DNA from: Candidatus Poribacteria bacterium
Lineage (GTDB): Bacteria > Poribacteria > WGA-4E > WGA-3G
Reading direction: 5' to 3'
DNA length: 64,000 nt
Assembly (NCBI GenBank): GCA_003635255.1
Contig: PYJC01000133.1
Coordinates: forward strand, 6,686 to 70,685
The translations under genes and the position numbers were made by a program. Positions 36,401-48,784 of the stretch are shown piece by piece; within the stretch, counting starts at the first letter, position 1; every line of letters begins with the position of its first letter. Under the pieces are notes generated by a model. That model was given only the letters and a program-made list of their open reading frames with translations, was not told the origin of the DNA and ran no database searches.

Positions 36401-38809
36401 TCATCGTGATAGGTGCGCAGCGACAAGCTTTTCCAACCGCGTAGCCCAAATTTCAGGAGAATGAACCTTCCCGCTTCGCGCCTCAATCACTTTTCCATCG
36501 GTATCAATCAGTACGACTGCCGGGCACTTAACCACAGAAGCCAACCGCTCAATCACCAGACTGAACTGCTGAGCCAGTGGGCCCTCATAATCATCATAAA
36601 TGTGCTGTCCCGGATACCCTTTCTCGCGGATATAGTTGCGGAATGCTTCTTCATTGTTCCATCCGCCAGTGTTAACACTGATAATCTCAAACCCCTTGTC
36701 GTGGTATTTCTGGTATACCGTGTCCAGGGATGTTAGTTCCGCTTCACAATAGTCACTCGTCGTCCAAAAATAGAGCAGCACAACCTTCCCGCGATGCACC
36801 GAGAGCGAAACCGGTGTGCCATCTACAGTGACGGCTGAGAAGTCTGGAACCGCTTTCCCAACCCGCGTGAGTTCAGTCCACTTTACGAGTTGCCCGAGCT
36901 GTTCGCTTCTGGTACTAACCGAGAGAATCTTGCCATCTCGGTCAATAAGCCACTGTGAAGGCACACTATTAATGCCGAAATACCGCGCAAGTTCACTCTC
37001 CCACCCCTTACCATCAAAAATCTGGAGCCACGGGATATCGTGTTCCTGAATAAATTCGCGGAGTTCCGCTTCGCTTTCGTCTAAACTCACACCGATAACG
37101 TCGAAGCCATCCTGGTGATAGTGCGCGTATGCTTCTTTGATATGCGGCATCTCTGGCGCGCAGAAGCCACACCATTTTGCACAGAAATTGAGGAGCACCA
37201 TTTTGCCGCGGTAATCCGAGAACGAAACCGGTGTGCCATCAAATGCCACCGCTGAAAAATCCGAGAGTTCTTTGCCAACCCACGCTGTCTGATCCCATAC
37301 GGTCTTGATCTCTGAATGCCCCACCCACGGATATTTTTCTGCGGATTCGGTGTCACCCAACGCTTCATAGATATCGCTAAGTCCACGTAAAGCGTACCAA
37401 TCGTCGGGTTCTTGTTCAAGTCGTTGCTGAAAGGCGTGCTGTGCTTCAACAATCAGAGGTTTACACCGTGCAAGCAGTTCGGCGTTTTCCTCGGGACTTC
37501 TCATCAGATTCCGATAGATATAGCAAGGCGTTCTCCCGACATCTTTGTACAGTTTTGCCAACCAGTGATACAATTCAGATTCATCTTGCTGCTTCGCGCT
37601 TTCAAACAGCCTTTCGAGTGTGGTCAGCGTTAATTCAAACAAAGGATCTAAAGATTCTCTATAATGGCTAAGTGCAAGAAAACAGGTCTCCACATCATTA
37701 GGAGTCAGTGTCATCGCCTGTTCAAGGAACAGAAGATCCCTGTTTCCTGCACCGTTACCTTCCCAGACAATGATTGCCAACATCTTCATCGCCGCGCCGT
37801 TGTCCGGTTCCTTTTCGAGCACCTCTTCAGAGAACTCTCGGAGTTCTAAAAGCATCGCTTCAGGGAACCGTGAAACGTACTCAGGCAGCTGCGGGGGCAG
37901 TGTCGTTTTACCGTCAACAACGCCTGTTTCAATCCTCGCTTTGAAGTAATCCAAAAGTTGTTCCTGAACTTTCGGGGTGAGTTCCCACCAAGGTTTTGAG
38001 AGTCCACGATCCTCCAGTGAATCAAGGTAGGTATCCCAGAAATCTATATTTTCGGGCGTTCCATTGTCTAAACCACACGCGTTAGCCGATTCTTGAAGCA
38101 ATTTTTTCTGAAACGCTGCCTGCGTCTCAGGTAATAAGGCTCTACATCTTTTAATCAAGGTATTAAGCTTTTCAATCAATGTCCCGAACTGCTCAATTCG
38201 CTCTGGTATTTCAAAGTCTGCCTTGAGAGACTTGATTCTCTGATAGACTGCGTACGGCGTTACTCTATGCCGTTGATAAGCAAACTTCGCATCTCGATAA
38301 TGTAACGTATTGTCCTGTCGCTTTGCCCATTCAAAGAGGCTTTCAAGCGCGATAAGCACTTTTTCTTGTTCATCAATACGTCCGAAACCGTGATATTGCC
38401 TGTACTTGTCAATCAAATGCAGATTTATACACGGATCTTTTGGCACCAATGTCAACGCCTTTTCCACGAATGGTAGACTCTCATCGTAGTTCATATCTCT
38501 CGCTGCTGCTATTGCCAAAATTATAGATGCGCCGCCGTTGTCCGGGTCTGTTTCAAGAACGGCTTCTGCCAACATTCTTAGTTTTGGTTGCATCTCCTCA
38601 GAAAAACGCCAATAATAGTCATGGAAACCGGGTGGAAGTGCCGTCTGGTCATCCGAGACTCCCGCCTCAACCTTCGTTTTGAAGTAAGCGAGGAGTTCCT
38701 CCTGCGTCTCTGCGTCTATCTCTTTCAATTCACCTCTTGCGAGTCCATAGTTGTAAAGTGAGTCGAGGAGTGTATACCAGAAATCTGTAGAATCATGTTT
38801 CGTAGTCAT
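36401..38809 (-). CDS. cytoplasmic protein with a duplicated helical (TPR-like) N-module plus two thioredoxin-fold (TlpA/redoxin-like) domains
   Basis: I chose the ATG at 38809 (GGAG upstream). There is no signal peptide. The ~300-aa N-module occurs twice (DFWYTLLDSL...ETDPDNGGA / DFWDTYLDSL...EKEPDNGAA). The first Trx domain has WCGFC. The second lacks CxxC (FWTTSDYCEAE). Confidence 0.65.
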   Translation of the reverse strand: MTTKHDSTDFWYTLLDSLYNYGLARGELKEIDAETQEELLAYFKTKVEAGVSDDQTALPPGFHDYYWRFSEEMQPKLRMLAEAVLETDPDNGGASIILAIAAARDMNYDESLPFVEKALTLVPKDPCINLHLIDKYRQYHGFGRIDEQEKVLIALESLFEWAKRQDNTLHYRDAKFAYQRHRVTPYAVYQRIKSLKADFEIPERIEQFGTLIEKLNTLIKRCRALLPETQAAFQKKLLQESANACGLDNGTPENIDFWDTYLDSLEDRGLSKPWWELTPKVQEQLLDYFKARIETGVVDGKTTLPPQLPEYVSRFPEAMLLELREFSEEVLEKEPDNGAAMKMLAIIVWEGNGAGNRDLLFLEQAMTLTPNDVETCFLALSHYRESLDPLFELTLTTLERLFESAKQQDESELYHWLAKLYKDVGRTPCYIYRNLMRSPEENAELLARCKPLIVEAQHAFQQRLEQEPDDWYALRGLSDIYEALGDTESAEKYPWVGHSEIKTVWDQTAWVGKELSDFSAVAFDGTPVSFSDYRGKMVLLNFCAKWCGFCAPEMPHIKEAYAHYHQDGFDVIGVSLDESEAELREFIQEHDIPWLQIFDGKGWESELARYFGINSVPSQWLIDRDGKILSVSTRSEQLGQLVKWTELTRVGKAVPDFSAVTVDGTPVSLSVHRGKVVLLYFWTTSDYCEAELTSLDTVYQKYHDKGFEIISVNTGGWNNEEAFRNYIREKGYPGQHIYDDYEGPLAQQFSLVIERLASVVKCPAVVLIDTDGKVIEARSGKVHSPEIWATRLEKLVAAHLSR

Positions 38810-39035
38810 AATCATCTCCAAGGTTATTTTGAGAAAATGCAACTTCAGATACAGCAGTCTACTTAGAAGAATTAGTGTCGCATCTCTAACACCCACTTGT
38901 CAAGCAAATATCAGATATGCGTTCAACTGACACACGTAAGTGTTTTTCCATGATCTATTCATGAAGATAGATATAGCGAAACCCAACAATCCAAACACCA
39001 GAGGCATGAGAATATGTTGGGTTTCCGTCCGAATT

Positions 39036-39066
39036 AAAGTCCCCTGATAAGGGGGATTTAGGGGGT
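39036..39066. repeat. AAAGTCCCC(C)TGATAAGGGGGATTTAGGGGGT repeat, copy 1 of 3
   Basis: The same 31-32-mer occurs at 50279-50310 and 52504-52535. A shared distal AATTYGCGTAAGTCYC box lies ~40-70 nt further on. Confidence 0.85.
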
Positions 39067-39135
39067 TTAAAATCAAAAAACTTCGCTCCGCGTGCTAAAT
39101 TCGCGTAAGTCTCAATCCATTTGTCCACTGCTTCG

Positions 39136-39399
39136 TTACTGAAAATAATCTGCGTTGATGTCTATGTAATCTTCCCACGCTTCGGGAACTTCATCCTCTA
39201 TAAAGATCGCCTCAACCGGACACGCCGGTTCACATACAGCTCAATCGATGCATTCTTCGGGATCAATGTAGAGTTGATTTACCGCTTCAAACGCGTCAGC
39301 TGCACTGGTCGGATGCGGGTGAATGCAATCTACAGGACACACGTCAACGCATGCGCTGTCTTTTACGTCAATACAGGGTTCGCAAATTACATACGTCAT
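39136..39399 (-). CDS. 7Fe-type ferredoxin paralogue with an in-frame TGA replacing a [4Fe-4S] Cys ligand (candidate selenoprotein, or a recent pseudogene)
   Basis: It is the same length (264 nt) and co-linear with 39483-39746. The TGA is at plus-strand 39241-39243, where copy 1 has TGT (second Cys of CIDCSVCEPECP). The frame continues for 34 codons (AVCEPACPVEAIF...ADYFQ) to a TAA at 39136-39138. Confidence 0.5.
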
Positions 39400-39482
39400 T
39401 TTTTTTCTCCTTGTTGTGTGTTTTTTGATCGGTTGGCACACCAATGCCAAATACTGGTATTCGCGTGCCAACCCGTTGTTAT

Positions 39483-39746
39483 CTATTGAAAATAGTCTGC
39501 GTTGATCTCTATAAAATCTTCCCATTCTTCAGGGACTTCGTCCTCTATGAAGATCGCCTCAACCGGGCATTCGGGTTCACATACACTACAATCGATGCAT
39601 TCTTCAGGATCAATGTAGAGTTGATTGACCTCTTCAAATGCGTCGGATGCATCAGTCGGATGTGGATGAATACAATCTACGGGACAGACATCAACACAAG
39701 CACTGTCTTTTACGTCAATGCAGGGTTCACAAATTACGTACGTCAT
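39483..39746 (-). CDS. fdxA: 7Fe ferredoxin ([3Fe-4S][4Fe-4S], FdxA type)
   Basis: MTYVICEPCIDVKDSACVDVCPVDCIH...QLYIDPEECIDCSVCEPECPVEAIF matches the Thermus/Mycobacterium/Azotobacter-type pattern. AAGGAG RBS. Confidence 0.9.
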   Translation of the reverse strand: MTYVICEPCIDVKDSACVDVCPVDCIHPHPTDASDAFEEVNQLYIDPEECIDCSVCEPECPVEAIFIEDEVPEEWEDFIEINADYFQ

Positions 39747-39838
39747 TTTTTCTCCTTTTTGTGTTTTTTAATCGGATAGGCTGCCAGTCCTAAGTCATTT
39801 GCGTCGGTGTGCGTGCCAATCCATTCCTTTTCTTCACT

Positions 39839-40576
39839 TTAAAATGGGAGGGCAGTCGTCACGTCGGCAGATGTCCAATGAATCTCAGGGTTCAGTGCAT
39901 CGCTTGAATACCGATAACCCCCTTGGACATAACGGATACCTACCATGTTTTCTAATCGATAGGTGAGTTCCTTCGCCTCTGCGATATTCACCTCAATGTC
40001 TGCGTTCTTCTGTAGCTCAAAACCCTTGTGAAGCAATTGCACATGTAACCCATATCTTTCTAAGGCAGATGCAAGCCGATTTGCCAAGGTCTGAAACTGT
40101 GATAACTCCAAGTTAGCCCCATCTTCCTGCCATAGATTAAAACCGTTATGACATACCGGGATGTCTAACCCCTCCTTTTCCAACATTGTTTTTAGTTTCA
40201 TCATGTCGTTGTTGCGATAGCCTACTCCTTCATCCGCGAGGATTTCCAATTGAAATCCCCAATCAACAACATTCAAAGGAAGCGACTGTTCCGCAATTAA
40301 GGACTTCAGAACCTCCTTGATTTCTGGGACGCGGTATGTCTCTAAAGCGAGTCGAGTCGTCGCTTCATCCCTCTCAGATGCCGACCTACCTACGTAGATA
40401 CCGTAACTTAGATTGTTTTCATTCAACCATTGCTCTACGACTTTCTCTATCTTCGACTGTGTTAAACGGTCCGACTTCTCACTCACCACTAACGGACCGC
40501 TATCGGAAGCAATGAGAGGCAGTTTAAGTTCGGTAATCAAGGCATCTAATAATTCTTTCACATCGTTTGGACTCAT
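39839..40576 (-). CDS. hypothetical protein, paralogue of 40633-41340 (unknown family)
   Basis: AAGGAG RBS. It has no TM segment or signal peptide. It shares the N-terminal M(S/T)P..VKELL..LI.E..LP and three GF.L strand-like motifs with its neighbour. Confidence 0.6.
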   Translation of the reverse strand: MSPNDVKELLDALITELKLPLIASDSGPLVVSEKSDRLTQSKIEKVVEQWLNENNLSYGIYVGRSASERDEATTRLALETYRVPEIKEVLKSLIAEQSLPLNVVDWGFQLEILADEGVGYRNNDMMKLKTMLEKEGLDIPVCHNGFNLWQEDGANLELSQFQTLANRLASALERYGLHVQLLHKGFELQKNADIEVNIAEAKELTYRLENMVGIRYVQGGYRYSSDALNPEIHWTSADVTTALPF

Positions 40577-40632
40577 GGGTTTTTCTCCTTTTTGTAAGTT
40601 TCTTCCCTCTTATAATTTCGTCCTTTTGCGAT

Positions 40633-41340
40633 TCAACGCCGCGGGAAACGCCATGGGGAGACACAAATACTCGCACTCGTCCAACTCGTTTCCGAGGCAT
40701 CATCACGGTTTACATACTCGTACGTATTCAGTACATAATTGATGCCGAAAGTTATATCTATCTGTTTGGCAAGCTTCCTGACTTGTGACAGGGGCACCGT
40801 GGTTTCCGCCGCCTTTTCGAGTTGGAAGCCGAGATGAAACATTTTTGCTTTTAGTCTGTTTGCTTTTAATAAAGCCTCAAACCGATGGGCAATCTTCTCA
40901 AGCTGCGATAGTTCAACCCGGGTCCTTCCTTTCTTGTGTAATCGAAATCCACCATGAAGGATCTTGACAGGGTAACTCGTCGTGTCATCCTCCGACAGCA
41001 TAATCAATCGGAAGCCACAATCGGTAAAACGGATAGGCAGCTCTTGTTCTGCTATAACTGATTCAAGGAGGGCTTCAACCGCTGAGGCTTCCAGCAATTC
41101 TTTGGCTGGTGAAGTAGCGTCGGTTTTGGTATAGAATTCCATAATTTCCGGAAGTCCCGGAAGAAGTACATGGAGCTTACCGTCCTTGTTCCATTGCGCG
41201 ATAACGTCCTTAATACGCGCCTCTGTCGTGGAATGCCGCGCCCCTAAATCTTGGGAGGGTAATATATCAACAATGTCAATTGGAAGACATGCCTCCGCAA
41301 TTAAGACCTTCAACAATTCCTTGACTTCTGTCGGTGTCAT
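40633..41340 (-). CDS. hypothetical protein, paralogue of 39839-40576 (unknown family), first gene after the ECF sigma factor
   Basis: AAGGAG RBS. It has no TM segment and no zinc-finger anti-sigma motif. Confidence 0.6.
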   Translation of the reverse strand: MTPTEVKELLKVLIAEACLPIDIVDILPSQDLGARHSTTEARIKDVIAQWNKDGKLHVLLPGLPEIMEFYTKTDATSPAKELLEASAVEALLESVIAEQELPIRFTDCGFRLIMLSEDDTTSYPVKILHGGFRLHKKGRTRVELSQLEKIAHRFEALLKANRLKAKMFHLGFQLEKAAETTVPLSQVRKLAKQIDITFGINYVLNTYEYVNRDDASETSWTSASICVSPWRFPRR

Positions 41341-41354
41341 GTCGGGTTCTCCTT

Positions 41355-41392
41355 TTGTGAATTAAGAATGCAAATCAGCAGAAAAGGTTACA
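41355..41392 (-). promoter_or_regulatory. candidate ECF-type promoter motif (copy 2), upstream of 40633-41340
   Basis: The minus-sense sequence TGTAACCTTTTCTGCTGATTTGCATTCTTAATTCACAA is ~85% identical to the motif at 43547-43584. Confidence 0.45.
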
Positions 41393-41418
41393 TGAATTTT
41401 TCCGATACTGCACACTTT

Positions 41419-42042
41419 CTAACCTTTATCGCGGAATATATTGTCGAACTCACCCGGATATTCTGATTTCATCCAAGCGACTAACTTCTGTTTCGCCCGA
41501 TGCAACCGCACCTTCGTTGCCGATGGACTAATATCCAATGTTTTCGCAATTTCTTCAAGCGTCATGTTATCGAGTCGCAATTCAAATGCACGCTGCTCTG
41601 ATTCCGGCAACCGCTGTGCCAAACCACGAACGATTTCTAATTGCTCTTCGGCGATGATTGTCTCTATAGGTGAGCGATGCTCAGGTTCTATTGTGTAGGT
41701 TTCAAAGATTTCATCAACAGGATCCGTCTCAATACTTCTCCGGTTTTCTCGGATATGTGTAGCGATGAGTTGCTTTGCGATGCTAAACATCCAACTTGAG
41801 AACTTTTTGCGATCCCGAAGCGTTCCGAGGTGCTTGTGTACCCTGATAAACGTCTCTTGCATCAGGTCTTGCGCTGTCTCCCAACTCCCAACCCGCCTGT
41901 AAAAGAAATTGAGAAGCGACATCTCATAACGGTGATAGAGGATTTCAAAGGCACCCTCATTTTCATCGTCTAAACTTTGATACACCAGTTCCTCGTCTCG
42001 TGATTCATCCATCGCCATCACATCCTGTCTTAGCATCGCCAC
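41419..42042 (-). CDS. ECF-type RNA polymerase sigma-70 factor
   Basis: Region 2 (LLNFFYRRVGSWETAQDLMQETFIRVHKH) and region 4 HTH (MTLEEIAKTLDISPSATKVRLHRAKQKL). Confidence 0.85.
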   Translation of the reverse strand: MAMLRQDVMAMDESRDEELVYQSLDDENEGAFEILYHRYEMSLLNFFYRRVGSWETAQDLMQETFIRVHKHLGTLRDRKKFSSWMFSIAKQLIATHIRENRRSIETDPVDEIFETYTIEPEHRSPIETIIAEEQLEIVRGLAQRLPESEQRAFELRLDNMTLEEIAKTLDISPSATKVRLHRAKQKLVAWMKSEYPGEFDNIFRDKG

Positions 42043-42129
42043 CTATAGCAAAAAATCTCAAAATATATCAATCTCTCAGTAGGAACACCCTTTGTGGGGG
42101 TCCGTAAACTTCGTTTGTAGTAGGGCGAT

Positions 42130-43473
42130 TCATCGCCCGTCAATTTCCGACGAATCTTTTTTGCCCTCTATTTCCGTCTTAACCAATTCTTCTAACAGGC
42201 TGCCTCTCGCCGCAACCGAGATAACCTTGCCCTCCCGATCCATCAAAAACGGTGCCGGGATACCGCGGACACCATACTGCTCCACGAGATGACCAGCCCA
42301 TTTTTGACCGTCGAAAATTTGTCGCCACGGTATCCCCTGCTCTTTGATGAACTCGCGCAACACCGCTGCGTCTTCATCCAAACTCACGCCGATAACCTCA
42401 AAACCTTCGCCGTGGTATTTCTCGTACACCGCTTTGATCCGCGGTATCTCTCCAATACAAGGACCGCACCACACCGCCCAGAAATCGAGCAAGACGACTT
42501 TGCCACGGTAATCCGCAAGTGAAATCGGATTGCCGTCAAGGTCAACTGCTGATGAGAAGAAATCAGGCAACACCTGTCCTACCCATCCCAAACTGGGATC
42601 TGCTTTGACCTGATATTCATTCGCAAGTTCGATATTTCCTAATTTCTCATGAATATTCGCTAATCCTCTGAGGGCACTCCGGTCATCTTTGTCCTGTTCC
42701 AACTGCTTCTCATAAACCCTTTGTGTTTTCTTAAATACCTGTTCCGCTGCGGCAGTATTTCCTAAGGCCTCTTGGATTTCAGTTAACATGCGAACAATAT
42801 CCCAAGCATCTGGACGCTGCGCCAACTGCTCTTCAAAGACATCCTGAATCTTACCCATGACCGCTGTCCACCGTTCATAGAGTGGATCGTCGCTTTCAAG
42901 TTCCTTGTAAAAATCGTTGGGTCGCGTTGTGACATACAAATAGTCATAACAACACCGGAAGAGCCATTGATACAACATCGATTCTTCACCTTCGCGATGC
43001 CATTCAAATAACCGTTCAAGCGCGATAACGGCCTTATCAAAGTAGAGCGGATCAATCCCAGATTTCACAAACGCTAAATAGCAGAGCGATAGATCGTTCG
43101 GCAGCAACAGCGTCGCTTTCTCCGAAAAGACCCAGTACTCATCGGGCGGTATGTCGTAGGTCCACCCCGCCAGCGCGATTGCCAAAAATTTTGCGGCTGC
43201 ACCGTTATCGGGATCGGTTTCCAGCGCGTTTTCCGCGTGTTCTTGCAGCTGTTGACACATCGCTTCAGGAAGCCGCCAGACATACTCGTTCCATATCAAA
43301 TCCGGTGGAAGGCGGGTTTCTCCATCAATGACACCCGCATCAATTTTCGCCTTGAAATGGTCAACAAGTTTTTCTTGAACATCGGGCGAGATCTCCCACT
43401 CAACACTCGAAAGCCCTCGGTTTTCAAGCGTACCAAGAAACGCATTCCAGACATCTACACTGTTTTCTTTCAC
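42130..43473 (-). CDS. cytoplasmic helical N-module plus TlpA-like thioredoxin (WCGPC) protein, single-module paralogue of 36401-38809
   Basis: I chose the GTG at 43473 (GGAGG 7 nt upstream). There is no signal peptide. The N-module is homologous to both repeats of the 802-aa protein. The Trx motif is FWAVWCGPC. Confidence 0.6.
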   Translation of the reverse strand: MKENSVDVWNAFLGTLENRGLSSVEWEISPDVQEKLVDHFKAKIDAGVIDGETRLPPDLIWNEYVWRLPEAMCQQLQEHAENALETDPDNGAAAKFLAIALAGWTYDIPPDEYWVFSEKATLLLPNDLSLCYLAFVKSGIDPLYFDKAVIALERLFEWHREGEESMLYQWLFRCCYDYLYVTTRPNDFYKELESDDPLYERWTAVMGKIQDVFEEQLAQRPDAWDIVRMLTEIQEALGNTAAAEQVFKKTQRVYEKQLEQDKDDRSALRGLANIHEKLGNIELANEYQVKADPSLGWVGQVLPDFFSSAVDLDGNPISLADYRGKVVLLDFWAVWCGPCIGEIPRIKAVYEKYHGEGFEVIGVSLDEDAAVLREFIKEQGIPWRQIFDGQKWAGHLVEQYGVRGIPAPFLMDREGKVISVAARGSLLEELVKTEIEGKKDSSEIDGR

Positions 43474-43546
43474 GATTTTACCTCCAAATTTTTCTTGTTC
43501 ATAAAATATCTGATTTCGATTTTGTATCCTTGAATCTGAGCCTTCA

Positions 43547-43584
43547 TTGTAGATTAAGAATGCAAATCCCACAAAAAGGTTACA
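43547..43584 (-). promoter_or_regulatory. candidate ECF-type promoter motif (copy 1), upstream of 42130-43473 and the sigma gene
   Basis: The minus-sense sequence is TGTAACCTTTTTGTGGGATTTGCATTCTTAATCTACAA. Confidence 0.45.
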
Positions 43585-45580: not shown

Positions 45581-45714
45581 TGTTTTGAATAGAAAAAATT
45601 GTAGTTTCCCTAAGGCTAACTGTTGGTTTTTAGATACACTAAAGAACCTTGTGGAAAAATATGGTATCTCTGGAGATAGAGTTGTTGCGTCTTCTCTTTA
45701 ATTGCAATAAAATC

Positions 45715-46467
45715 ATGTTAAGGATAATTGTAGCTATCCAATTTCTCATTCTCGTTTTTCCAGCAAACGCTGGCTTGCACGCTACATACACAGTGGATGA
45801 GCGGGTCATTCTTCAGGAGATCGCCATCCCTGAAGCAGCGGGTGCCTATTATCGAGAACCGGGTAAATTGGTAGTATCCGAAGACGGAGACCGCTGGTTC
45901 GGACCAGAAATCGACAGTCTGGTGCTTTGTCGTAATACCGCGCACGCATTCAATGGTGCTGGCTTCTTCGATATTATTTATACGCGGGAGGATGCCAAAG
46001 TCTGGCCCTCCGCAACGCCGGGGAAGGTCTGGTGGTATCGGCAACAGGAGTGGCGGTTCGCTGATGCTAACACGCCGTGGGGCACTGACACCGTCCATAT
46101 TATCCTCACAGCTGAAATCGGATGGCCCGAGATTGATGCAGCCAATAGTGTTACTGGGTACCCTTGGAGCGGATTTGAGGAGCATTGGCGCGAGGGTGAA
46201 ACTATAAAATCTAAGGCAGAGATCGTCGGTTATCACCAATATGAGCAGGCAGGCAAAAGATACCTCGCACCGAAGTACTACAAACGCGGAACTTCGAGTT
46301 ATTCCTGTGCAACTGCGCGAAGACATTACGATTTGAAAGTGTTGAAACATGACGAAGGACACTTTACGTCGCCAGAATTTCGTCCCGAAGTCAACAAACT
46401 CAGCCGCCGTGAAAAAGGAATATCAAAAGACACAAGCAATTGGTACGATTGTATACGCCTCAAATAA
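45715..46467 (+). CDS. secreted hypothetical protein (module gene A1)
   Basis: The ATG at 45715 gives a signal peptide (MLRIIVAIQFLILVFPANA). It is a paralogue of 47267-48034 (YYR.PG...WFGPE..SL.LC...WYR.Q.WRFA...TPWGT...TGYPWSG.E.HWR.GE...WYDCI). Confidence 0.6.
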   Translation: MLRIIVAIQFLILVFPANAGLHATYTVDERVILQEIAIPEAAGAYYREPGKLVVSEDGDRWFGPEIDSLVLCRNTAHAFNGAGFFDIIYTREDAKVWPSATPGKVWWYRQQEWRFADANTPWGTDTVHIILTAEIGWPEIDAANSVTGYPWSGFEEHWREGETIKSKAEIVGYHQYEQAGKRYLAPKYYKRGTSSYSCATARRHYDLKVLKHDEGHFTSPEFRPEVNKLSRREKGISKDTSNWYDCIRLK

Positions 46468-46479
46468 ACAGGACCATTA

Positions 46480-47175
46480 ATGAAAAAAATTGTTCGCGTT
46501 TTCAAATTAGCAGTCATCATCTGCACATTTCTTATTTCCTTACCGGGCTCGGATGCTGTCCTTTGGGAAGACCACTTTGAGCAGGCAGCGAAAGAAGACT
46601 GGCAGCACATCGGAAAAGATTCCATTTGGACGGTTGAGGACGGATTTTTAAAGACGGAAATCCAAGCGCAAGCACAATGGAGTGCTATCTTCGAACTTTA
46701 CCAATTCATCGCCTATCCGGGTCCCTATAACGACTTTACAATCACCCTCGAAACTATCGGGGCAGCGCGTGCCAGATTCGGCATCGCACTCGCAAAGCAT
46801 TTCGACACCACCGTGCCAGAAATGGATGAACACGGCTACTACCTCTTTTTCACGAACGACATGTATGCATCAAGAGATGGCGAGGTTCTTATCGAACCCG
46901 GACAACGCTGGAATACAGACGAACTCCAGCAGATGGAATTACACTTTAAAGACGGCAGATTCCAACTCTCCGCGGATGGCGAATCTCGCATCGACTTTAC
47001 GGACGCGAACTTCAATCAGGTCGATAGTATCGCTTTTATACTCGCAGGATTTATCACAGAGGATGTCAATGTTGGCAACGCCTGGGTAGACACGTTTACA
47101 ATTGATGGACTCGCAGTCTCACCCATACGAAAATTAGCAACAACCTGGGCAAGCCTAAAGCAAGAAGACCCCTAA
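46480..47175 (+). CDS. secreted DUF1080/LamG-like lectin-fold protein with KLATTWASLK tail (module gene B1)
   Basis: It has a signal peptide and W(E/H)D.F....DW...GK..W.V(E/D)DGFL typical of DUF1080-like jelly rolls. It is a paralogue of 48083-48784. Confidence 0.6.
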   Translation: MKKIVRVFKLAVIICTFLISLPGSDAVLWEDHFEQAAKEDWQHIGKDSIWTVEDGFLKTEIQAQAQWSAIFELYQFIAYPGPYNDFTITLETIGAARARFGIALAKHFDTTVPEMDEHGYYLFFTNDMYASRDGEVLIEPGQRWNTDELQQMELHFKDGRFQLSADGESRIDFTDANFNQVDSIAFILAGFITEDVNVGNAWVDTFTIDGLAVSPIRKLATTWASLKQEDP

Positions 47176-47226
47176 AAGGTATCCGCTGCCTGCTAACAAG
47201 GTATCTTTCTAAAACAGTAACCCTCT

Positions 47227-47264
47227 TAACTGAAAACTGGTAACTGGTAACTGACAACTGTTAA
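47227..47264 (+). repeat. heptad repeat array CTGAAAA|CTGGTAA|CTGGTAA|CTGACAA|CTGTTAA
   Basis: Read directly. It lies between the two copies of the A-B module. Confidence 0.8.
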
Positions 47265-47266
47265 AT

Positions 47267-48034
47267 ATGCTCCGAAAAAATTTAGACTTCATCTTCGACG
47301 CATTTTTACTCCTGACCGTCCTCAGCATCGCGTTTTGGAACACCTACGCCAGAGCACGATTGAATCCGGGCGAACGCGCCCAACCCGCGAATTCAGGATT
47401 CTATTACCGAACCCCCGGTGTAAACGGAAAATGGTTCGGACCCGAACTCAATTCGCTCACGCTTTGCAAGGGTGTCCATAATCCATACAACAACAGGGGA
47501 CAGTTTGACATCGTAGAAACCCTTGAAAGTGCAGCGGTCTCCCGCTCAAGCATCCGAGGCGCGCTCCACTGGTATCGCGGACAGCAGTGGCGTTTTGCCA
47601 CAGACGATACGCCGTGGGGCACAAACTTTTCCTATATCACACTCCGCGACGATTTAGGATGGAGCGAGATTAGTGTCGGTGGCGGCACAACCGGCTACCC
47701 ATGGAGTGGCGTTGAACGGCACTGGCGCGACGGTGAGATTATCCGAGCACAGGCTTTCGTCATCGGATGGCGGCGGTACGCGCGCGGCGCAGAGCGGTGG
47801 GTCTGTCCCATGTATTACAAAATTGGCGGATGGGAAGGTGAATCCCTTGAAGTCAACTGCAAAACCCTAAGAACTTGGTTCCCATCGGATTGGGATGTCT
47901 TGAAACAGAACAACGGAGACTTCGGTCCACCCATCGAACGCAAACCCGGTGTTCTGAGCCGATGGGGAAAGAAAACACAACGCTGGTACGACTGCATAAA
48001 GATTAGTGGGTCTGAGCGGACCCAAACCCGGTAG
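47267..48034 (+). CDS. secreted/membrane-anchored hypothetical protein (module gene A2)
   Basis: It has an N-terminal hydrophobic segment and is a paralogue of 45715-46467. Confidence 0.6.
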   Translation: MLRKNLDFIFDAFLLLTVLSIAFWNTYARARLNPGERAQPANSGFYYRTPGVNGKWFGPELNSLTLCKGVHNPYNNRGQFDIVETLESAAVSRSSIRGALHWYRGQQWRFATDDTPWGTNFSYITLRDDLGWSEISVGGGTTGYPWSGVERHWRDGEIIRAQAFVIGWRRYARGAERWVCPMYYKIGGWEGESLEVNCKTLRTWFPSDWDVLKQNNGDFGPPIERKPGVLSRWGKKTQRWYDCIKISGSERTQTR

Positions 48035-48082
48035 ACGCGATACCGAAGCAACATTTTTTGCCGCTCGCGATGCCAACTTACT

Positions 48083-48784
48083 ATGCCATACAAAAATCTA
48101 AGCATCTTCATACTTTTTTATACCCTCATTAGCTGCACCCTCTCCGCATCCGCCGAGACGTGGCACGACGATTTTGATGCCGAAAACCCAGACGCATGGG
48201 ATGCCGTCGGAAAGAATTTCATCTGGAAAGTAGATGATGGATTTCTACGCGTAGAGGTGAAACGTGAATGGGAGATAGACTACGAACTCTACCAATTCAC
48301 CGCAGTCCCGGGACCTTATAGGAACTTCATAATCAAGATAAACGATTTCGGCGGCGATAAAACGCGCTTCGGTTTTTGTGTCGGACAGCATTTCTCCGAT
48401 ACCCCCGGAGAGGATCCATTCTTTTATATCTTTTTTCCCGATGAAATCAGAGCAAGGCGTTTTGACGGTAAAGGGAACAGCCACCCCTTCCGCTTTCGGC
48501 TCTCCAGAGAGCCGCGCATCCGTTGGGAAACAGATACCTTGACACAGATGGAATTGCACTTTAATTTAGGATACTTCGTGCTATTCGCAGACGGTAAATT
48601 CCGCACTGCGTTCCAAGATGCCAACTTCGACAAAATTGAGATCCTCGGCTTTGTCATGGAAGGCATTAACATCGCAAACGAGTGGGTCGGTAAGGCATGG
48701 GCAGACTCCTTCACCATCTCAGGGCTCGACATCACACCAGAAGCCAAATTAACCGCAATGTGGAGCCAACTCAAGATTAGATGA
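48083..48784 (+). CDS. secreted DUF1080/LamG-like lectin-fold protein with KLTAMWSQLK tail (module gene B2)
   Basis: It has a signal peptide and is a paralogue of 46480-47175. Confidence 0.6.
   Translation: MPYKNLSIFILFYTLISCTLSASAETWHDDFDAENPDAWDAVGKNFIWKVDDGFLRVEVKREWEIDYELYQFTAVPGPYRNFIIKINDFGGDKTRFGFCVGQHFSDTPGEDPFFYIFFPDEIRARRFDGKGNSHPFRFRLSREPRIRWETDTLTQMELHFNLGYFVLFADGKFRTAFQDANFDKIEILGFVMEGINIANEWVGKAWADSFTISGLDITPEAKLTAMWSQLKIR

Follow-up and report, generated by a model that had tools for sequence, protein, structure and literature searches.

A candidate autoregulated ECF sigma factor locus of Candidatus Poribacteria with two identical promoter motifs and cytoplasmic redox proteins

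The best-described systems resembling the locus reported here are those of the extracytoplasmic function (ECF) sigma factors RpoE, AlgU and SigW, with their partners RseA, MucA and RsiW, and the SigR–RsrA system of actinomycetes, which has an autoregulated promoter and a regulon that includes the thioredoxin system. ECF sigma factors without any linked regulator have also been described. Excerpts of the ECF re-classification report 16 such groups, in which short conserved C-terminal tails or extensions are proposed as possible modulators (PMC7826278). Here we analyse an ECF sigma gene and its neighbours on the minus strand of a 64 kb stretch of DNA from Candidatus Poribacteria (the window). 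Every named homologue of the proteins encoded in this gene cassette is from Poribacteria. The initial annotation had proposed a seven-gene redox cassette centred on the sigma factor, and had treated the lack of a neighbouring anti-sigma gene as exceptional. Given the 16 groups, the second point does not stand, and an ECF sigma factor without a canonical anti-sigma factor is an already documented situation. Our analysis favours, somewhat beyond an even chance, the view that the cluster is a self-contained, lineage-specific, autoregulated local ECF sigma regulon.

An open reading frame (ORF) check of the window confirmed seven co-directional genes at the positions first assigned to them, all on the minus strand. 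The first, TPRTrx1 (42130–43473), encodes a 447-aa fusion of TPR and Redoxin/AhpC-TSA domains (Pfam, NCBIfam); its orthologues are called TPR-Trx below. It is followed by the sigma gene (41419–42042) and by two genes for paralogous orphan proteins, unkA (40633–41340, 235 aa) and unkB (39839–40576, 245 aa). Next come fdx1 (39483–39746), which encodes an 87-aa FdxA-type ferredoxin with the 7Fe pattern, all of its Cys residues and matches to Pfam Fer4 families, and its paralogue fdx2 (39136–39399), which has an in-frame TGA at 39241–39243 and is a candidate selenoprotein gene. The last, TPR2Trx2 (36401–38809), encodes an 802-aa protein with TPR and two Redoxin domains (Pfam/NCBIfam).

The strongest evidence for a common regulatory unit came from the upstream regions of orthologous genes, which we aligned across 39 Poribacteria loci. 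The alignment exposed an almost invariant block, TGTAACCTTT-N12-CATTCTTA. This 30-nt motif has exactly two zero-mismatch copies in the window, against 0.02 expected by chance. The first, P1 (TGTAACCTTTTTGTGGGATTTGCATTCTTA, 43555–43584, minus strand), lies 82 nt upstream of the GTG start of TPRTrx1. The second, P2 (TGTAACCTTTTCTGCTGATTTGCATTCTTA, 41363–41392, minus strand), lies in the 78-nt spacer between sigma and unkA, 23 nt before the unkA ATG, and is followed by a Shine-Dalgarno sequence, AAGGAG. Both recur in each of the 36 other Poribacteria loci with coverage of the region, and the conservation of the motif reaches a divergent clade in which the sigma factor is only 60–65% identical. 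P1 is kept upstream of TPR-Trx or, where that gene is missing, of sigma, which it directly precedes in 14 loci. Of the 37 other loci with the spacer covered, 36 have P2 at 19–24 nt upstream of unkA, and in L021 the distance is 679 nt. In two loci (L028 and L029) unkA is duplicated, and the motif precedes every extra unkA as well.

The motif combines an AAC-containing −35 element with a short T/C-rich −10 element, an arrangement typical of RpoE-like ECF promoters, and its spacing differs by one base from the Escherichia coli sigmaE consensus. The sigma factor's own operon is preceded by such an AAC-type −35 motif both here and in 36 other loci. Because the motif is RpoE-like and the closest solved relatives of the sigma factor are RpoE, AlgU and SigW, we infer that P1 and P2 are promoters of this sigma factor itself.

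Two transcription units would follow from this arrangement. The gap between TPR-Trx and sigma is as small as 24–30 nt in some species, and we therefore consider the two genes to be co-transcribed. From unkA to the next gene, the sole terminator-like site on the minus strand is a hairpin at 39040–39056, 3′ of fdx2, which is likely to mark the end of the P2 transcription unit. The proposal that a dedicated unit is centred on the sigma factor thus gains support, as two identical ECF-type promoters join sigma to TPR-Trx and to unkA, unkB and the ferredoxins.

The spacers of the cluster have features of their own. The terminator-like hairpin sits in an element resembling repetitive extragenic palindromes (REP) or miniature inverted-repeat transposable elements (MITE), AAACCCCCTAAATCCCCCTTATCAGGGG(G)ACTT (39038–39068, minus strand). 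This element recurs in other Poribacteria intergenic spacers, sometimes two or three in tandem, and is also found in tandem between TPR-Trx and sigma in L007 and L016. Between the ferredoxin genes, upstream of fdx2, lies an inverted repeat, GGTTGGCACGC...GGTGTGCCAACC (39431–39473, minus strand). Similar repeats are present in L006, L014 and L015, where the sequence varies and the hairpin potential recurs; it could be an operator, or a hairpin that serves in mRNA processing or stabilisation. Across the close clade, the 82-nt leader that separates P1 from the start of TPR-Trx (43474–43554, minus strand) is conserved in sequence. We considered a regulatory RNA in this leader and rejected it, as the consensus helix has only 5 bp (−1.4 kcal/mol) and no covariation. 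In four loci (L008, L012, L013 and L022) the P1 leader, ahead of the first gene, contains inserted tandem repeats with a unit of about 40 nt (GGCACAGGCTAACAGCCTATGCTACAAAAGA...), which lengthen it from 82 nt to 115–367 nt.

The 802-aa protein, which the initial annotation had included in the cassette, probably does not belong with the other six. TPR2Trx2 is a paralogue of TPR-Trx with two helical N-modules and two thioredoxin-fold domains, the first with a CGFC motif and the second without CxxC. No ECF motif was found upstream of its gene within three mismatches. Instead, the gene has its own, different conserved upstream block with TTGACA (38871–38903). Of about 21 closely related loci, only 7 have the gene at this position, and in the others purA directly follows the ferredoxins. 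TPR2Trx2 is thus probably not a member of the sigma regulon. Because of its different promoter and variable presence, we define the functional unit as six genes, spanning 39136–43584.

Conservation of the neighbourhood was also assessed. The gene order sigma, unkA, unkB (one to six copies), ferredoxin (one to three copies) was held in every Poribacteria locus that covers it. Could this be no more than conserved synteny among close relatives? In the close clade, a CarboxypepD_reg gene and purA-rpsI-rplM also flank the cluster, so the conservation of gene order is partly general synteny. In the divergent clade, however, the flanking genes of the window were found in only 3 of 14 loci, while the identical promoter is still kept ahead of two transcription units. 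In addition, unkA was duplicated along with its promoter, and every component is confined to one lineage: searches placed the sigma factor, the helical N-module of TPR-Trx and the unkA/unkB family in Poribacteria alone. Because the divergent clade retains the gene order and both promoters, and because promoter and unkA are duplicated together, we regard the linkage of sigma to the cluster as functional, and synteny without a functional unit as very improbable.

Besides the shared flanks, three further observations weigh against a local sigma regulon. The motif was examined within the window and about 650 kb of related loci, a restricted sample, even if one off-target match, with two mismatches, was all that those 650 kb contained. 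The motif could in principle be the binding site of another regulator. Finally, ferredoxin copies 2 and 3 of the divergent clade have near-consensus TTGACA-N17-TATAAT promoters of their own (L025:12780–12855, L025:13110–13182, L034:6430–6485 and L034:6745–6810), so that ferredoxin expression in that clade is not purely sigma-dependent. An autoregulated local regulon nevertheless remains our preferred reading over mere synteny, because both motif copies are kept in 36 of 36 loci.

The divergent clade also differs in copy number. In seven of its loci (L025, L026, L028, L029, L030, L033 and L037) the unkB family has expanded to three to six tandem copies, and P2-unkA-unkB modules are duplicated. 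Ferredoxin N-terminal fragments of 28–30 codons, which resemble recombination scars, lie between the copies.

The sigma factor itself was assigned with confidence. It scored 104.5 bits against TIGR02937 (cut-off 42.9), and its only Pfam matches were Sigma70_r2 (6e-17) and r4_2 (4e-13), as expected of ECF (group 4) sigma factors, which have about 200 aa and no sigma3 domain. Its real start is probably an ATG 8–10 codons downstream of the annotated start. The protein contains no cysteine, and both its C-terminal tail, WMKxEYPGEFDxIF, and a linker motif, EHRSP, are invariant columns in the alignment. A word-indexed search found only 82 close homologues, and all named ones are Poribacteria orthologues.

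The absence of a canonical anti-sigma factor beside the sigma gene was borne out. In the seven proteins and the products of the flanking genes, Pfam and NCBIfam gave no match to an anti-sigma family (class I–III anti-sigma domain, zf-HC2, RskA, FecR or similar). A regular-expression search of the seven proteins found no HxxxCxxC motif of the zinc-binding anti-sigma (ZAS) type. None of the seven exceeded 1.9 in a 19-residue Kyte-Doolittle window, and none had an N-terminal signal-like segment, in agreement with the earlier statement that transmembrane segments, signal peptides and ZAS motifs are lacking. The start codon of TPR-Trx is supported across species by a conserved Shine-Dalgarno sequence and the upstream promoter. 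Judged from their sequences, all products of the cassette are predicted to be cytoplasmic.

TPRTrx1 has two parts. Its N-module (residues 1–297, nt 42583–43473) is all-helical and TPR-like, with about 13 helices; even at E ≤ 10, Pfam found TPR matches in its last 80 residues only. A search with this module gave 211 matches, in Poribacteria only. The C-terminal domain (nt 42214–42582) has a thioredoxin fold of the ResA/TlpA type, and its active site reads WCGPC. The AlphaFold2 model of the whole protein has a predicted local distance difference test (pLDDT) score of 89.3, and in Foldseek the thioredoxin domain matched ResA, TlpA and DsbE structures with target-normalised template modelling (TM) scores of 0.81–0.89 and a root-mean-square deviation of about 2 Å. 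The NCBIfam ResA model gave 95 and 147 bits, below its cut-off of 170. The description of the thioredoxin-fold proteins as TlpA/redoxin-like without export signals therefore holds, by Foldseek and Pfam and by the lack of a hydrophobic N-terminus. A motif search found CGPC and CGFC as the CxxC motifs. WCGPC is kept in about 85% of TPR-Trx homologues, and one paralogue subgroup has lost CxxC. In two loci, TPR-Trx remnants lie between P1 and sigma (L009:8299–8596 and L027:8299–8535). As the first 15 or so codons are joined to the last 25 or so, these appear to be recent internal deletions.

The two orphan proteins are 30% identical to each other. Neither matched a Pfam family, even at E ≤ 10, or an NCBIfam family, and the family profile found nothing significant among PDB sequences. 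In a set of 5.8 billion proteins the family had 151 matches, all named ones from Poribacteria, and its profile had only 18 matches among 1.84 billion representatives. UnkB was modelled by AlphaFold2 with high confidence (pLDDT 93.5, predicted TM score 0.88) as six alpha-beta-beta repeats. Foldseek gave no match for this model among the solved structures of PDB or the viral structures of BFVD (TM < 0.25). The view that these proteins lack a characterised family is thus confirmed by Pfam and NCBIfam and, for unkB, by the structure searches. Asp105, His143 and His183 of unkB are invariant and lie at equivalent hairpin positions, and the residues common to unkA and unkB resemble those of ligand-binding proteins or enzymes. 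UnkA has a conserved basic C-terminus, WRFPRR. Its gene directly follows sigma in every locus that holds both, while unkB is present in one to six copies in other species.

The ferredoxins scored below the cut-offs of the NCBIfam models (FdxA_Actino, 93 bits against 125; FdxA_fam, 45 against 65), and are about 20 residues shorter than these models; the 7Fe assignment is read from the Cys pattern CxxCxxxxxCxxxCP...CxxCxxCxxxCP. The in-frame TGA of fdx2 was confirmed, although at a different position from the one first given: it replaces the second Cys of CxxCxxCxxxCP (codon 53), not the first. By alignment to Azotobacter vinelandii FdI, we take this residue to be a [4Fe-4S] ligand. Four species share the TGA at this codon, in the window and in L009 (10821–11081), L014 (1296–1556) and L015 (11184–11444), whereas 75 copies have Cys there. 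The L009 copy, with its GICEPACP context, may be an independent change from Cys to selenocysteine (Sec).

A pseudogene or an assembly error would also give an in-frame TGA. In accord with either, the window contains neither tRNA-Sec nor sel genes (Rfam and tRNA scans gave only tRNA-Lys and tRNA-Glu), and scans of JGI metagenomes revealed no further TGA ferredoxins: a first pattern gave nothing, and a second gave 59 matches, all of them due to chance and none a ferredoxin. However, the identical codon is TGA in four distinct species, where it takes the place of a functional Cys, and the 34 codons downstream are conserved through to the normal stop, with synonymous changes from species to species. 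Moreover, a candidate Sec insertion sequence (SECIS) hairpin, AACCGG-CGUGU-CCGGUU, starts 10 nt after the UGA (39214–39230, minus strand). It has a perfect 6-bp stem and a G at position 2 of the apical loop, and is identical in all four TGA copies. Among the 75 Cys copies the stem is kept in 8, and none combines the perfect stem with a G at loop position 1 or 2; the difference between TGA and Cys copies amounts to a synonymous Ala codon, GCG or GCA. We consider a pseudogene or assembly error improbable, and fdx2 very likely to encode a selenoprotein in which Sec replaces the second Cys of CxxCxxCxxxCP.

Published work provides context for this candidate. A G at apical-loop position 1 or 2 is the criterion for a bacterial SECIS element given in excerpts of a study that also reports Sec-containing hydrogenases encoded by Poribacteria (PMC13582414), and SelA and SelB occur commonly among symbionts of sponges (PMC5649159). 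In the portion available of a 2026 review, the table of prokaryotic selenoprotein families has Fe-S and 2Fe-2S-related entries and HgcB, and no FdxA-type ferredoxin. TGA is an ordinary stop codon in 6 of the 34 genes of the window.

How might such a locus work? The RpoE-like sigma factor would recognise TGTAACC-N16-(C)ATTCTTA. From P1 it would transcribe the TPR-thioredoxin (WCGPC) gene together with its own, a positive autoregulation, and from P2 unkA, unkB and the two 7Fe-type ferredoxin genes, stopping at the hairpin after fdx2. The output would be a cytoplasmic electron-transfer and thiol-redox module, comprising a disulfide reductase and ferredoxins, one with Sec as a [4Fe-4S] ligand; the alpha/beta-repeat proteins unkA and unkB may serve as ferredoxin partners or as sensors. 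Redox stress, or stress that damages Fe-S clusters, would be a likely stimulus. Since the sigma factor's only conserved promoter is its own, which makes a pure positive loop, some brake on it is expected. A redox-stress regulon with an internal antagonist, as had been suggested from the gene content, is plausible.

UnkA is the best single candidate for the antagonist, though a tentative one. Its gene is invariably the next after sigma and would itself be sigma-dependent, which allows a negative feedback loop. In a mirror-tree comparison, sigma distances co-varied more with unkA than with unkB (partial r 0.64 versus 0.20, weak evidence). Three points weigh against it. The predicted fold of unkB, and by 30% identity that of unkA, is an alpha/beta repeat that resembles no known anti-sigma domain, the duplication of unkA with unkB copies in some species makes it look more like part of an output module than a stoichiometric regulator, and the residues that it shares with unkB suggest ligand binding or enzymatic activity. 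A more elaborate arrangement, in which unkA and unkB would form a new structural class of soluble sigma regulators, is decidedly speculative. Here unkA would be the anti-sigma factor, unkB a decoy or anti-anti-sigma factor, and the ferredoxins, including the Sec-ligated one, would bring the redox signal to a ferredoxin-sensing partner-switch.

The second-ranked candidate is TPR-Trx, which might act as an anti-sigma thiol switch with a logic like that of RsrA but on a thioredoxin fold. The reduced helical N-module would hold sigma, oxidation of WCGPC would free it, and TPR-Trx induced from P1 would reset the system. TPR-Trx and sigma share a transcript from P1 in 23 of 37 loci. TPR-Trx is all-helical as known anti-sigma domains are, and has a redox-active WCGPC. 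Its first 30 residues, although highly conserved, were modelled with low confidence (pLDDT 54–73), as is typical of a stretch that becomes ordered when it binds a partner. It also co-varies with sigma as well as unkA does, so that the mirror-tree does not separate the two. However, TPR-Trx is missing beside sigma in the other 14 of the 37 loci, among them those with deletion remnants, and CxxC is lost in the paralogue subgroup noted above. It has no anti-sigma family match at E ≤ 10, and, as a multi-copy family, fits a general disulfide reductase that is plain output. On this evidence TPR-Trx is a rather unlikely antagonist.

It is also possible that the cassette holds no antagonist at all and that the neighbours are pure outputs, a prospect that we rate as not far short of even. 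The sigma factor would then be controlled by proteolysis, by phosphorylation of the EHRSP linker, by its C-terminal tail, through autoinhibition or partner docking, or by a trans-encoded factor. The 16 ECF groups without a linked regulator, and the short C-terminal extensions proposed as modulators in them, provide precedents in the excerpted re-classification (PMC7826278). The invariant tail EYPGEFDxIF and the EHRSP linker of the sigma factor are in keeping with this, as is the behaviour of unkA, unkB and the ferredoxins as an expandable output module. Against it, the tail has only about 15 residues and lacks cysteines, the cluster has no linked kinase or protease gene, and positive autoregulation without a linked brake would be unusual.

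Beyond the cassette, the flanking genes encode transporters, binding proteins and CarboxypepD_reg-domain proteins, and include purA, rpsI and rplM. With housekeeping and transport genes on its flanks and a syntenic locus, a reading of the cluster as a defence system or mobile element was dropped. On the plus strand, four consecutive ORFs without a Pfam match (45649–48784; 272, 231, 255 and 233 aa) are all kept upstream of the cassette in other Poribacteria, and the N-terminus of at least one resembles a signal peptide. Two paralogous groups account for the first three: 45649–46467 and 47267–48034 are about 40% identical, and in other species 46480–47175 is accompanied by a second copy of about 39% identity.

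With one sigma factor, two identical promoters and four protein types, the cassette is a compact test case for the control of ECF sigma factors without an anti-sigma factor, and a reconstruction in E. coli could show whether any of its components holds sigma in check, and which one. The analysis places two phylum-specific orphan families in a regulatory context, one of them with a confidently predicted fold that is unmatched among solved structures. If true, a Sec-ligated [4Fe-4S] ferredoxin would help in understanding how selenium tunes or protects Fe-S centres. The locus also offers a first handle on the redox-stress physiology of Poribacteria, which are uncultured sponge symbionts.

The comparison with known systems brings out both likenesses and differences. 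The cassette resembles RpoE, AlgU and SigW in having a two-domain sigma factor (sigma2 and sigma4), for which these are the best solved-structure matches, in its AAC-containing −35 and short T/C-rich −10 elements at a similar spacing, and in the predicted positive autoregulation from a promoter upstream of the operon. It differs from them in that there is no membrane-spanning anti-sigma factor and all partners appear to be cytoplasmic, in that the gene following sigma has its own promoter copy and a predicted alpha/beta-repeat fold, and in that this sigma group is found only in Poribacteria. Like SigR–RsrA, it is a cytoplasmic ECF system associated with thiol-redox proteins. Unlike SigR–RsrA, however, it has no HxxxCxxC protein, its thioredoxin fold is fused to a TPR-like module encoded upstream of sigma, and ferredoxins and orphan proteins would be its main output.

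With ECF29, ECF238 and ECF114, as described in excerpts of Casas-Pastor et al. 2021 (PMC7826278), the Poribacteria sigma factor shares the lack of a recognisable anti-sigma factor nearby and a short conserved C-terminal tail. It is set apart from those descriptions by a tail without Cys or an RCE/D motif, and by a TPR-Trx, unkA/unkB and ferredoxin context that the excerpted descriptions do not include. The thioredoxin domain of TPR-Trx has the same fold as the TlpA, ResA and CcmG oxidoreductases (at the TM scores given above) and falls in the same Pfam families. Unlike these, TPR-Trx has no signal peptide or membrane anchor, carries the classical cytoplasmic WCGPC, does not reach the NCBIfam ResA/TlpA cut-offs and is fused to a 300-residue lineage-specific helical module. 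Finally, the candidate selenoprotein resembles known bacterial selenoproteins in having Sec for Cys in or near a metal-cluster motif, with a SECIS-like hairpin bearing an apical-loop G just downstream. It would differ from the metal-cluster selenoproteins in the available part of the literature in its host, a small ferredoxin of the FdxA type in which Sec would be the second ligand of CxxUxxCxxxCP.

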